Positions 7,516-39,246 of a DNA stretch of 64,000 nucleotides are shown here, piece by piece (within the stretch, counting starts at the first letter, position 1; each line of letters begins with the position of its first letter). The notes under the pieces are model-generated. The model saw only the letters and a list, made by a program, of their open reading frames with translations. It had not been told where the DNA came from and did no database searches. This DNA comes from Leucoraja erinacea (taxonomy: Eukaryota), in assembly GCF_028641065.1 (NCBI RefSeq), contig NC_073403.1, positions 15,996,001 through 16,060,000 on the forward strand, written 5' to 3'. Made by a program: the position numbers and the translations under genes.

Positions 7516-7602
7516 TTACGATGCTTTCTCATGGCCAATTTGTTCAGGTTGCTCTTCCTCCTCAGAGCTACTCTCGACATCACTTCGCTCATCTTTAGAT
7601 AC
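7516..7602 (-). CDS. CERS5/6-like last coding exon ([28 protein letters not shown])
   Basis: ttcag| acceptor; DxRSDxE motif and acidic CK2-type SSSEEE; TAA at 7518-7516. Confidence 0.93.
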   Translation of the reverse strand, partial: VSKDERSDVESSSEEEEQPEQIGHEKAS

Positions 7603-37600: not shown

Positions 37601-39246
37601 ATAACGTAATCTAACAGATGCTGATGCTTGGAGCATGGGTGTTAACAGGAGAATTTGTTTCTCAGATGAAGCAAGCTGCACTCAAGACCATGTTCCAACA
37701 ATTTGCCAGGGGGAGAACTCCATTGTCGTTAGCTGTCTGCATTTCTTCTTTATTAATGACAGTGCTCTGGAGCTTCATGTCCTTTCCGAACATGCTGATT
37801 CCTATTACAAAGGTGCGAGGTACTACAACGGTACAAAGTTAACCTCTCCTTGTGACTCTGGCCAGGGCTTGCAACAGAATTTCTCTTTGACCTCACCTAC
37901 CCTGCTTTACAGCGAGTTGGAAGGTAATGAGACAATTGCTGGGTTGTCAAACTAGCTTTGTTCCTAACAGTAGAATTTACACCATGAAATATTCCCCTTC
38001 CGGATTGCTTCTCCCGGGGAACACGTAATCATGATTATGTTTAGGAAGGAACTGCAGATGCTGATTTAAACTGAAGATAAACACAAAAAGCTGGAGTAAA
38101 AGAAGGATCTCGAACCAAAACGTCACCTATTCCTTTTCTCAAGAGATGCTGTCTGACCCGCTGAGTTACTCCAGCTTTTTGTGTCTACCATGATTATGTT
38201 CTTTAAATAAACCTTATCCTGTCCCTAACTTTGCACAGCTGACCTAGGGGTTCTGAGAACAGAGCAACATTCATGACTGGGCCTGCTGAGGTTATCCACC
38301 CGAACGATCCAGTTCCCACATGTCATACAATAGTGTGGAAGATAGGCATGCTATATGGATTATTTAACGCACAGTGCCTGCTGCACATATTGTAAGAGCC
38401 AGGTATTGGTCCAGTAACAAGTTGTTCCAATATGCCTGGAGACTAGGGTCACTGCATAGATCTAACAAACTACATACATGGCCATGTGAATATATTCACA
38501 CCAACTCTCCTTCCCCTGATCCCCTTGGCTCCTCCTTAACTCCTCTCCGCACCCCATTCTCATTTCCCCTAAATAACTCCATCCTCTCCCTCTTATCCTC
38601 ATTGACTTCTCTCCGCTCTCCCCACTTGCCTACTCAGCTATCCATCCCACCGATTTCTCAAATTACTGTCCCAGCGAAACCCCACCCCGCTGCCCGTCCC
38701 CTGCTCTGCCTCCGGGCTCCTCAAACTTCCCCTGTACCCGCCAAACGCAGTGTTTTGCTATGAATCATAATCGCTTGGCGACGTCTACCGGCAGCACATT
38801 GCCTCGATGTCTATCAGTGAAGTCGGGAGTTCCGATCTGATCTGACAGCGTCTCTTTTTAAAAAAAAATATGAAGATTGTTTAGTAGGTGCTGATGTCAC
38901 TTTAAGTGAAATTACAGAAAAACACATTTTTCAAAAATCTTTCATCACAACTTTTACAAACACGAAAAAATCGTTAGCCCGGCAGCAAAAGAAAAATCCA
39001 CGTATACAGGATTGCCTTTCCCCTGTCTGCTTGTTGTAAACCCCTCTCCCTTTACCTCTCAAAGAGAAGCCGTAACACGTAGATAGCCCATGTCCAGGGC
39101 AAAAGAAAGTACAGATCCTTGAGCCGGGGGTAGACTGGATTCTGTGAGTCTTCCAACTGTGCCCTGCTGACGTTGTGTGGAAGCCAGAAGCCTTCGTCCC
39201 AGATTGAAATAGTAAGCCACAGCGGCAGCCAAGCGCTGCCCTCCAT
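7516..39246 (-). CDS. Ceramide synthase, CERS5/CERS6 subfamily (Hox-like domain + TLC/Lag1p domain); 10 coding exons, 1110 nt, 369 aa
   Basis: Exons 39056-39246, 27129-27234, 25085-25215, 22524-22581, 21005-21055, 17468-17560, 15312-15440, 11865-11971, 10281-10437, 7516-7602 are all GT-AG and join in frame without stops. Motifs: [54 protein letters not shown]...[37 protein letters not shown]. Internal exon sizes 106/131/58/51/93/129/107/157 match my recollection of CERS5/6 gene structure. The exact paralogue is unresolved. Confidence 0.95.
8610..9582 (+). mobile_element. Degenerate Penelope-like element (post-RT region, GIY-YIG, pLTR)
   Basis: [24 protein letters not shown]; pyrimidine-rich spacer; degenerate pLTR at about 9490-9580. 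Confidence 0.75.
10281..10437 (-). CDS. CERS5/6-like exon 9 ([19 protein letters not shown]...[17 protein letters not shown])
   Basis: ttacag| acceptor, |gtaaa donor, 157 nt; lies within ORF 10215..10457. Confidence 0.95.
11865..11971 (-). CDS. CERS5/6-like exon 8 ([35 protein letters not shown])
   Basis: cctag| acceptor, |gtgagt donor, 107 nt; AKMANYAK is diagnostic of CERS5/6. Confidence 0.95.
12060..12577 (+). mobile_element. Rex1/Babar 3' UTR fragment containing a (TG)n tract and an assembly gap
   Basis: cagccattaggctattaaac...aataaaacactTGACTCTTGA tail as in other Rex1-like copies; N-run 12181-12415 flanked by TG repeats. Confidence 0.6.
12181..12415. other. Assembly gap (235 N)
   Basis: Run of n flanked by (TG)n. 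Confidence 1.
12975..13198. mobile_element. PIF/Harbinger-like MITE
   Basis: TIRs GCCTGTCCCACTT(A/G)GCGATTT at both ends (21 bp, 1 mismatch) extending imperfectly to about 45 bp; CpG-rich, non-coding; GGGC-start TIR is typical of Harbinger. Confidence 0.75.
13475..14010 (+). mobile_element. CR1 3' fragment followed by an inverted pLTR/hammerhead repeat
   Basis: [24 protein letters not shown]1 tail GGCCTACTCCTGCACCTA; TGGTCTTTCAG occurs on both flanks. Confidence 0.8.
15312..15440 (-). CDS. CERS5/6-like exon 7, Lag1p motif ([16 protein letters not shown]...[10 protein letters not shown])
   Basis: tttag| acceptor, |gtagg donor, 129 nt; catalytic HH and HD..D residues present. Confidence 0.95.
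16340..17050. mobile_element. Old CR1 3' fragments in both orientations
   Basis: RGDL.EAYKI.RG...FFSQRMV..; inverted copy at about 16410-16670. Confidence 0.65.
17147..17321. mobile_element. Short fold-back Penelope pLTR-derived element with TSD
   Basis: TSD AACAAGG(T/C)GCTTTA at 17133-17146 and 17322-17335; internal inverted arms around a hammerhead-like motif at 17229. Confidence 0.75.
17468..17560 (-). CDS. CERS5/6-like exon 6 ([31 protein letters not shown])
   Basis: tcaaag| acceptor, |gtaag donor, 93 nt; SQF.DVKRK motif. Confidence 0.93.
19373..20596. mobile_element. Non-autonomous hAT (Tip100/Ac-like) element containing a Penelope ORF fragment
   Basis: TIR CAGGGCCGGATTTA / TAAATCCGGTCCTG; perfect 8-bp TSD TTTATTAG at 19365-19372 and 20597-20604; subterminal AGCTTAGGGCCTC at both ends; internal [10 protein letters not shown]...NEF....DLEFFFRRL. 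Confidence 0.85.
21005..21055 (-). CDS. CERS5/6-like exon 5 ([17 protein letters not shown])
   Basis: ttccag| acceptor, |gtgag donor, 51 nt; PWLW...CWYNYP motif. Confidence 0.94.
21615..22125 (+). mobile_element. Young CR1 3' fragment (21695-22064) nested in the tail of another CR1
   Basis: [23 protein letters not shown]...[19 protein letters not shown] duplicated at 21690-21694 and 22065-22069. Confidence 0.85.
22524..22581 (-). CDS. CERS5/6-like exon 4 ([19 protein letters not shown])
   Basis: ttgcag| acceptor, |gtaag donor, 58 nt. Confidence 0.92.
23310..23446. repeat. Local tandem repeats (about 33-bp duplication then a 28-bp unit CTAATTGGAAAAYAGATCTTCCACAGAT x about 2.7)
   Basis: Directly visible. 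Confidence 0.85.
23526..23689. mobile_element. Fold-back pLTR-derived element with TSD
   Basis: TSD ACTCTTCTYCYAGTT at 23511-23525 and 23690-23704; inverted arms GACACAAA.TGCTGGAGTAACTCAGCGGG / CCCGCTGAGTTACTCCAGCATTTTGTGTC. Confidence 0.75.
23930..24900. mobile_element. CR1 3' fragments (23930-24350 minus; 24500-24900 plus)
   Basis: [23 protein letters not shown]...[30 protein letters not shown]. Confidence 0.75.
25085..25215 (-). CDS. CERS5/6-like exon 3, homeobox-like region ([44 protein letters not shown])
   Basis: tttag| acceptor, |gtaac donor, 131 nt; aligns to CERS6 LSKQLDWD..WFRQRRNQEKPS..FCESM. Confidence 0.95.
26240..26313. repeat. 27-bp tandem repeat AAGTGGTGTGCCTCAATCAGTCTCTGC x about 2.7 inside the Helitron
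   Basis: Directly visible. Confidence 0.9.
26450..26892. repeat. C/T-rich low-complexity tract (G-quadruplex-prone on minus strand)
   Basis: Long C runs interrupted by T; source of the spurious Pro/Gly ORFs. Confidence 0.9.
27129..27234 (-). CDS. CERS5/6-like exon 2 ([11 protein letters not shown]...[10 protein letters not shown])
   Basis: ttgtag| acceptor, |gtaag donor, 106 nt, phase compatible with exons 1 and 3. Confidence 0.93.
28640..28880 (-). mobile_element. V-SINE
   Basis: Reverse-strand tRNA boxes (GGTTCGATCCCG) + GTGTGGAATTTGCATGTTC V-domain. Confidence 0.75.
29388..30633 (-). mobile_element. 5'-truncated Rex1/Babar LINE with an uninterrupted RT-to-C-terminus ORF
   Basis: NRSTDDAV...ALSHLD...[18 protein letters not shown]...[21 protein letters not shown]...[12 protein letters not shown]...[14 protein letters not shown]; 3' AATAAA(CTTGA)n tail at about 29388-29413. 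Confidence 0.92.
31234..31515 (+). mobile_element. V-SINE
   Basis: A box GGCACTGTGCTGCAGCAGTAGAG, B box GAGTTCGATCC, V-domain, CTAAA tail. Confidence 0.78.
31875..32405 (+). mobile_element. Degenerate Rex1/Babar 3' fragment
   Basis: [11 protein letters not shown]...[13 protein letters not shown]...[16 protein letters not shown] tail. Confidence 0.75.
32700..34852 (+). mobile_element. 5'-truncated CR1 LINE (about 2.1 kb of ORF2 with RT, frameshifted)
   Basis: [73 protein letters not shown]; tail GGCCTACTCCTGCACCTATTTTCTATG. Confidence 0.95.
35600..36830 (+). mobile_element. Two tandem Rex1/Babar 3' fragments (about 35600-36030 and 36127-36830)
   Basis: [18 protein letters not shown]...[45 protein letters not shown] tails. 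Confidence 0.85.
37085..37505 (+). mobile_element. CR1 3' fragment
   Basis: [27 protein letters not shown]. Confidence 0.8.
37600..37990 (+). mobile_element. Possible highly decayed Sola-like DDE transposase relic
   Basis: DEA....[15 protein letters not shown]....[10 protein letters not shown] resembles the DE...GKG.N.V.S.LH.F....L.LHADNC motif; downstream IAG..(frameshift)FVPN resembles IAGHTKF.PD. Confidence 0.35.
38042..38188. mobile_element. Fold-back pLTR-derived element with TSD
   Basis: Perfect TSD CATGATTATGTT at 38030-38041 and 38189-38200. Confidence 0.8.
39056..39246 (-). CDS. CERS5/6-like coding exon 1 ([10 protein letters not shown]...FWLPHNVSR...RLLFER)
   Basis: ATG at 39246-39244 in GCG-ATG-G context; donor AG|GTAAAG at 39055; N-glycosylation sequon NVS as in CERS5/6. 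Confidence 0.93.

Follow-up and report, generated by a model that had tools for sequence, protein, structure and literature searches.

A CERS6-like gene beside RUNDC1 in the skate Leucoraja erinacea probably represents a ceramide synthase lineage separate from CERS5 and CERS6

A stretch of 64,000 nucleotides of the Leucoraja erinacea genome (assembly GCF_028641065.1, contig NC_073403.1, here C27, positions 15,996,001 to 16,060,000; hereafter "the window") contains a complete ceramide synthase gene, which we refer to as the window CERS gene. With good confidence, though short of certainty, we place this gene in a lineage of its own beside CERS5 and CERS6, most likely the copy that the early vertebrate genome doublings left on the HoxB segment, which was kept in cartilaginous fishes and probably in some frogs, lost in mammals, and is predicted to encode an enzyme using acyl chains in the C16 range.

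The gene, its product and its transcripts

The gene model was derived from motif scans and the reading of splice sites. It comprises ten exons on the minus strand (39246-7516; cf. Table 1), separated by nine introns that all have GT-AG borders, and a coding sequence of 1110 bases that is translated into 369 amino acids followed by TAA. The translation agrees letter for letter with XP_055513144.1 (P0121 in our set), a Leucoraja erinacea protein that NCBI names 'ceramide synthase 6-like', so that the intact 369-residue ceramide synthase described in the initial annotation was borne out, as was its expectation of an automatic CERS5-like or CERS6-like label, since NCBI calls all these proteins 'CERS6-like'. 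The exons end at residues matching those of skate CERS5 and CERS6 (offset of seven residues), and because the intron positions match, the gene is not a retrocopy. The protein is 52% identical to skate CERS5 and 51% to skate CERS6, whereas these two share 72%, in line with the divergence from both that had been noted. All four motifs named in the initial annotation were found, but they are not diagnostic of CERS5/6 alone, since a hemichordate protein likewise contains FWLP, ESxEIIGP, and DDRSD.

A Pfam scan recognized the TLC domain (PF03798, E 4e-45) preceded by a homeodomain-like domain (PF00046, E 7e-6), which is the layout of CerS2-6. The predicted model (predicted local distance difference test score [pLDDT] 87.6) adopts the seven-helix CerS6 fold, and its best matches were the human CerS6 structures 8QZ7 and 8QZ6 (E ~1e-24; template-modeling score [TM-score] 0.73-0.82). 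Within what we take to be the bounds of the 11-residue chain-length loop, the skate sequence is identical to CerS6 at seven positions and to skate CERS5 at eight. The His-His and Asp-x-x-Asp residues of the Lag1p motif are kept, as are the equivalents of CerS6 Tyr142, Tyr189, His238, and Arg275 (offset 7), and the C-terminal DxRSDxE motif described for ceramide synthases (PMC8789539) is present as DERSDVE. CerS6 has been reported to work by a ping-pong reaction via His211 with His212, to have a base-binding pocket made of Tyr142, Tyr189, Asp239, Asp242, and Arg275, and to limit acyl chain length by the loop that connects helices 6 and 7 (PMC11919693). Because the loop of the window enzyme resembles that of CerS5/6, our best guess from the sequence is a preference for acyl chains in the C16 range, although helices 4, 5, and 7 carry changes peculiar to the clade that could alter it.

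With human CERS6 (8QZ6, 8QZ7), the protein shares about 50% identity, the fold, both domains, ten coding exons, the active-site residues, seven of the 11 loop residues, the glycosylation Asn, and the DxRSDxE tail, but it differs in its clade and locus (skate CERS6 lies on contig C7), in 43 clade-marking residues, in an additional histidine (His220) after the catalytic pair, in Gly197, in its N-terminus, and in a short C-terminal tail. It resembles CERS5 in sequence (52% to the skate protein), in eight of the 11 loop residues, in a histidine at the position of CerS6 Asn315, and in having a PTGES3-family neighbor; however, skate CERS5 lies on contig C40 beside COX14, and joining the window clade to CERS5 is rejected or weakly rejected (see below). 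CERS2, CERS3, and CERS4 have the same domain layout and catalytic motif, but they show about 40% identity, carry another loop, and form a separate clade outside the hemichordate sequences.

About 5% of one poly(A) RNA run was mapped, and 11 of its reads crossed the exon 9-10 junction and five the exon 8-9 junction. Exons 8, 9, and 10 were also joined in contigs of 1424 and 1420 bases from two RNA-like runs, ending just past AATAAA, and exon 1 was covered by a 1454-base RNA-like contig. Splicing was thus seen directly for the last two introns only, the first mapping having taken in four runs. No window CERS junction was present among the reads of a single-cell run, a further raw-read run had zero depth over exons 1-2, and the exon 1-2 junction was not among the results of a second read mapping, which repeats dominated. 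A search for sequencing runs containing the gene listed none registered as RNA, which speaks neither for nor against expression. At window position 7582, in exon 10, every RNA read or contig has G for A (plus strand), a silent difference that is likely allelic.

Table 1. Positions of the window CERS gene and of RUNDC1 in the window
Feature	Position	Strand	Remarks
Exon 1	39056..39246	-	ATG 39246; FWLPHNV, with Asn corresponding to the glycosylated Asn18 of CerS6; membrane helix 1; RNA-like contig 39054-39251
Exon 2	27129..27234	-	homeodomain-like domain begins here
Exon 3	25085..25215	-	homeodomain-like domain; TLC domain begins
Exon 4	22524..22581	-	Tyr149 = CerS6 Tyr142
Exon 5	21005..21055	-	coding
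Exon 6	17468..17560	-	Tyr196 = CerS6 Tyr189; clade marks His188, Gly197
Exon 7	15312..15440	-	His218, His219, His245, Asp246, Asp249 = CerS6 His211, His212, His238, Asp239, Asp242; extra His220
Exon 8	11865..11971	-	AKMANYAK; Arg282 = CerS6 Arg275
Exon 9	10281..10437	-	loop connecting membrane helices 6 and 7, residues 299-309; His322
Exon 10, coding part	7516..7602	-	DxRSDxE motif, acidic serine tail, TAA
3' untranslated region	7211..7515	-	AATAAA near 7238-7233; RNA-like contig ends 7222 and 7211
RUNDC1	48698..63016	+	first and last coding exons seen; RUN domain PF02759, E 3e-29; ATG near 48698

Intron 2 contains a long purine/pyrimidine low-complexity tract (26310-26850), and decayed reverse-transcriptase frames of long interspersed nuclear elements lie in introns at window positions 29578-30690 (-), 32891-34346 (+), and 53440-55193 (-).

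Placement in the CERS family

The main tree (LG+C20 model with posterior mean site frequencies) contained 49 rows, hand-picked from about 390 proteins with the guidance of a 229-row tree. In it, the window CERS proteins formed a clade (support 100/99) that lay outside both the CERS5 and the CERS6 group, and these two groups each contained shark as well as bony-vertebrate members. Hemichordate sequences fell outside all three, in this tree and in a smaller set (96/90 to 99/95). Forcing the window clade to join chondrichthyan CERS5 or CERS6 was rejected by the approximately unbiased (AU) test (p 0.001 and 0.0009). The window gene neither nests in CERS5 and stands beside COX14, nor nests in CERS6 and stands by SPC25/ABCB11 on the HoxD chromosome.

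The sawshark orthologue search (best 120 of 620 hits, 1910 candidates) gave three proteins 83-100% identical and others of at most 54%. At least 17 cartilaginous fishes, including Callorhinchus, are named among the 18 listed cluster members (15 of 27, 1 of 1, and 2 of 2), identity within the clade being 81-98% across 17 species, and among the records listed at least four species have the window CERS gene, CERS5, and CERS6. Between skate and chimaera, the window protein is 81% identical and CERS5 83%. Since it is common to skate and chimaera, the gene is not a recent lineage-specific duplicate: the clade is older than the chimaera-shark split, and in the trees, where the placement of Ciona is unstable, the duplication falls after the hemichordates. 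Several records of this group call for separate mention. Callorhinchus P0006, named 'ceramide synthase 6' by NCBI, groups with CERS5, and there was no chimaera CERS6 among the proteins listed. The Mustelus isoform P0002 lacks exon 7 and hence the catalytic His and Asp residues, and several shark records have N-termini longer by 18-30 residues. In Hemitrygon akajei and Narcine bancroftii, the record with the window gene has exactly the length of the record with CERS5 (80,845,220 and 103,180,129 bases in the two species), hinting that the HoxB-type and HoxC-type chromosomes are fused in these two rays.

Genome searches revealed six CERS loci in the skate: C27, C40, C7, C33, C29:3.86 Mb, and C29:7.81 Mb. 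The C33 locus is of the CERS2/3 type, the sole one of that type found, C29:3.86 Mb is of the CERS4 type, and C29:7.81 Mb is of the CERS1 type, judging by its sequence. CERS5 (C40:6.94-7.00 Mb) groups with CERS5 in the tree and adjoins COX14, and CERS6 (C7:5.80-5.94 Mb) falls in the CERS6 clade, with SPC25 and an ABC transporter coming after it on the contig, so that separate CERS5 and CERS6 loci are both present in the same genome. The HoxA-type segments C2 and C4 gave no CERS5/6-type match in a genome search that scored 45 candidates. With six CERS loci found, one of them of the CERS2/3 type, the description of the window gene as a 'seventh' ceramide synthase holds only for vertebrate gene lineages and not for the gene count of this skate.

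An index-free search (best 150 of 4621 matches) returned a frog protein, Ascaphus truei 'ceramide synthase 6-like' (XP_075436281.1), which has a relative in Mixophyes fleayi at 63%. In the 49-row tree, the two frog proteins and the fragment P0240 join the shark clade (100/97), and across the trees P0201 and P0216 branch just below (81/82 to 87/91); P0240 and P0201 are assigned to Chordata. An origin of the frog proteins from amphibian CERS5, frog CERS6, or CERS2/4 was rejected (AU p 0.0003, 0.0002, and 0.002). Eight residues that the shark clade has in common with the two frogs occur in 0 of 26 CERS5, CERS6, lamprey, and hemichordate rows, and the corresponding test for CERS5 or CERS6 gave no such residue. 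Support is weaker in a fairer control with the clade marks, of which the frogs match eight and nine of 43, with a background in 146 other proteins of 8% on average and 19% at most. In the frog proteins, the catalytic residues are conserved, yet the chain-length loop matches at one of 11 positions and the glycosylation Asn is absent, which suggests a changed specificity. We regard orthology of the frog and shark proteins as probable, and no more than that, because long branches meet there and synteny has been seen in the skate alone.

Since the Ascaphus and Mixophyes proteins join the clade, the lineage is probably not confined to cartilaginous fishes. Absence in mammals is likely, considering the established count of six CerS and the mammalian rows of the 229-row tree, which fall in CERS5 or CERS6. 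When the frog protein served as query in a word-indexed search, the best 120 of 288 matches did not include the shark clade, though the pair scores 357 bits; because such a pair was missed, blanks of word-indexed searches are no proof that bony fish, lungfish, coelacanth, or amniotes lack the gene.

Neighborhood and paralogous segments in the skate genome

The flanks examined on C27 extended 200 kb to the left and 180 kb to the right of the window. The order found was BECN1, PSME3, a copper amine oxidase, three G6PC1-type copies, AARSD1, PTGES3L, the window CERS gene, RUNDC1, RPL27, IFI35, an extra NID/DTX3L-like gene, VAT1, and RND2. Pfam supports the BECN1, PSME3, oxidase, G6PC (PAP2), RUN, RPL27, NID, ADH-type, and Ras-type calls and assigned the exons of AARSD1, PTGES3L, and PTGES3 to no family; the gene names are based on sequence motifs, altogether so for AARSD1 and PTGES3L, and the RUN-domain gene is taken to be RUNDC1 by its sequence. 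The human order at 17q21.31 is the same, with PTGES3L and RUNDC1 as direct neighbors; human RUNDC1 lies at 17q21 near G6PC1, PTGES3L, and RND2, CERS6 at 2q24, and CERS5 at 12q13. The window CERS gene and RUNDC1 are on opposite strands with a gap of about 9.4 kb, confirming the head-to-head arrangement first proposed. The PTGES3L/PTGES3 calls also rest on exon-to-exon similarity and on the Ptges3 and Ptges3l-aarsd1 entries in supplementary rows of PMC10115646; a supplementary table row also names the RUN-domain gene RUNDC1.

A genome search detected Hox9 genes on C2, C7, and C27. The C27 gene carries a homeodomain stretch characteristic of Hoxb9. No Hox9 match was obtained on C40, the contig with CERS5, COX14, PTGES3, and a SWIB gene, in line with the known loss of the HoxC cluster in skates. 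On C40, CERS5 has a paralogue of PTGES3L at a distance of about 35 kb, with 59% and 62% identity in two exons. SWIB-domain genes are found on both C27 and C40, and C27 has a G6PC3-like gene at 19.56 Mb. As expected of ohnologues, the three CERS5/6-type genes are located one each on paralogous segments, with paralogous PTGES3L/PTGES3 beside two of them. PMC10115646 places chromosomes 2, 40, 7, and 27 in one ancestral group in a supplementary table, and lists the C40 PTGES3L paralogue as 'Ptges3', the window CERS gene as 'Cers6-3', and CERS5 as 'Cers6-2'. The Pfam scan named three of 137 frames of the C40 flank and six of 148 of the C7 flank, the frames having been picked by length and repeat masking. 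G6PC2, named in the initial annotation as the neighbor of human CERS6, was sought in the skate genome and not found, and the stretch of C7 from SPC25 to the ABC transporter did not contain it either; the working local marker of paralogy is PTGES3L/PTGES3.

Three further features of C27 were observed. The three G6PC1-type genes are clustered at 15.88-15.91 Mb (two minus, one plus) and have first exons 95-100% identical. At 16.107-16.114 Mb, in the IFI35-VAT1 interval, a gene has a NID/RRM-like exon and a 1026-residue open frame with a DTX3L KH-like domain; no such gene is known to us in human 17q21, and the segment may thus have kept a second paralogue. An amine-oxidase exon occurs twice (15846567 and 15852992, 6.4 kb apart) with the same translation, pointing to tandem genes or an assembly duplication.

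Origin of the gene and its meaning

The 17q21-like order of C27, its Hoxb9-type gene, the paralogous segments, and the separate CERS5 and CERS6 support the initial proposal of a HoxB-linked whole-genome-duplication copy. The early vertebrate genome doublings would have made CERS5/6-type copies, of which that on the HoxB segment would have become the window gene; its lineage would have split from CERS5+CERS6 at the first doubling, before CERS5 and CERS6 split, and would have been kept across cartilaginous fishes and probably in some frogs, and lost in mammals. The encoded enzyme would N-acylate sphingoid bases with C16-range acyl-CoA. As a third CERS5/6 ohnologue, the gene stands as a separate lineage on a HoxB-type segment but not as an equal third copy, as it branches outside CERS5+CERS6. 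The topology (window clade,(CERS5,CERS6)) fits the grouping of Hox clusters into A/B versus C/D (PMC10972751), hence a split at the first doubling. However, in Supplementary Table 3 of PMC10115646 the partner of chromosome 27 is 7 and not 2, which would make the window gene the sister of CERS6, and because these groupings conflict, we grade the first round as likely rather than settled.

Several other observations weigh against this origin. Joining the window clade to all CERS6 or all CERS5 was only weakly rejected (p 0.029 and 0.026). Rooting is unsure because the stem of the window clade is long and Ciona falls inside CERS5/6 in the tree used for these two constraints. Neither of two lamprey genes groups with the window clade, and amphioxus and named hagfish sequences were not in the trees. 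The grouping of frogs with sharks reached only 89/81 and 91/90 in smaller sets, and the two frogs carry eight and nine of the 43 clade marks against a background maximum of 8/42 among the 146 proteins.

The most serious alternative, which we nevertheless consider unlikely, is that the window gene arose in the second doubling as a fast-evolving sister of CERS6, its long branch being pulled to the base of the tree. The above Supplementary Table 3 has chromosome 7 as 2-alpha and 27 as 2-beta, with beta segments faster-evolving (PMC10115646), the constraint costs just 9.9 log-likelihood units, and CERS6 rows are nearest to the window clade by path in three trees. Opposed to this are the AU p of 0.029, the Hox A/B against C/D grouping of the later hagfish paper (PMC10972751), and the 72% identity of CERS5 and CERS6, compared with 51-52% of the window protein to either. 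This alternative would alter the date and not the existence of an extra lineage, and we count it partly within our preferred explanation.

Still less probable is an older small-scale duplicate, made before the doublings or on the jawed-vertebrate stem, that came to lie in the HoxB segment by chance. It would account for the basal position and long stem, the lamprey genes on the CERS5/6 side, and the still deeper branching of P0201/P0216, but not for three genes placed one each on paralogous segments, two of them with a PTGES3-family neighbor; the hemichordates outside all three also argue against it. We see little room for a CERS5 or CERS6 duplicate that arose within cartilaginous fishes, moved, and sped up, the frog proteins being an unrelated fast duplicate drawn in by long-branch attraction: the 'CERS6-like' label throughout, the equal-length records of the two rays, and the long branches that meet in the trees are compatible with it, yet the AU test rejects nesting in chondrichthyan CERS5 or CERS6 as well as the amphibian CERS5, frog CERS6, and CERS2/4 origins of the frog proteins, and skates and sharks have the genes on records of different length. 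A pseudogene, an assembly artefact, or a catalytically dead copy is highly improbable, since the extra histidine, a conserved Trp replaced by Gly197, the low RNA depth, and two raw-read runs without junctions are set against an open frame, RNA that is spliced, a protein 81-98% identical among 17 species, and the retention of every catalytic residue.

Mammals are credited with six CerS (PMC11919693; PMC6315813), and PMC6315813 mentions neither shark nor lamprey. We found no prior description of the window gene in literature whose coverage mostly excludes subscription papers. It may be an unremarked entry among the 68 differentially kept ohnologues of PMC10115646 or the 135 shark-only ohnologues of PMC13450315. 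The gene does not represent a system of a new kind, since gene copies kept in sharks and lost in mammals are well known; like wnt6b and cspg5, shark-kept ohnologues lost elsewhere, it would be a genome-doubling copy held by slow-losing genomes, but it differs from them in encoding a lipid enzyme and in its apparent persistence in frogs. More tentatively, and with slightly less than even confidence, we suggest that it represents a seventh vertebrate CerS lineage and the sole survivor of one half of the first doubling, nearly unchanged in sharks, rays, and chimaeras as a C16-type enzyme and fast-evolving in frogs, where the entirely replaced loop would go with an acyl specificity or substrate found in no mammalian CerS.

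The presence of an extra lineage under 'CERS6-like' labels corrects the history of the CerS family as well as gene annotation in sharks and frogs. The lineage further provides natural variants for tests of how the loop capping the tunnel sets acyl chain length, as the shark proteins combine a CerS5/6-like loop with altered helices, and the frog proteins keep the catalytic core with a replaced loop. If the frog enzymes are orthologous and differently specific, the interest of this lineage would be higher.

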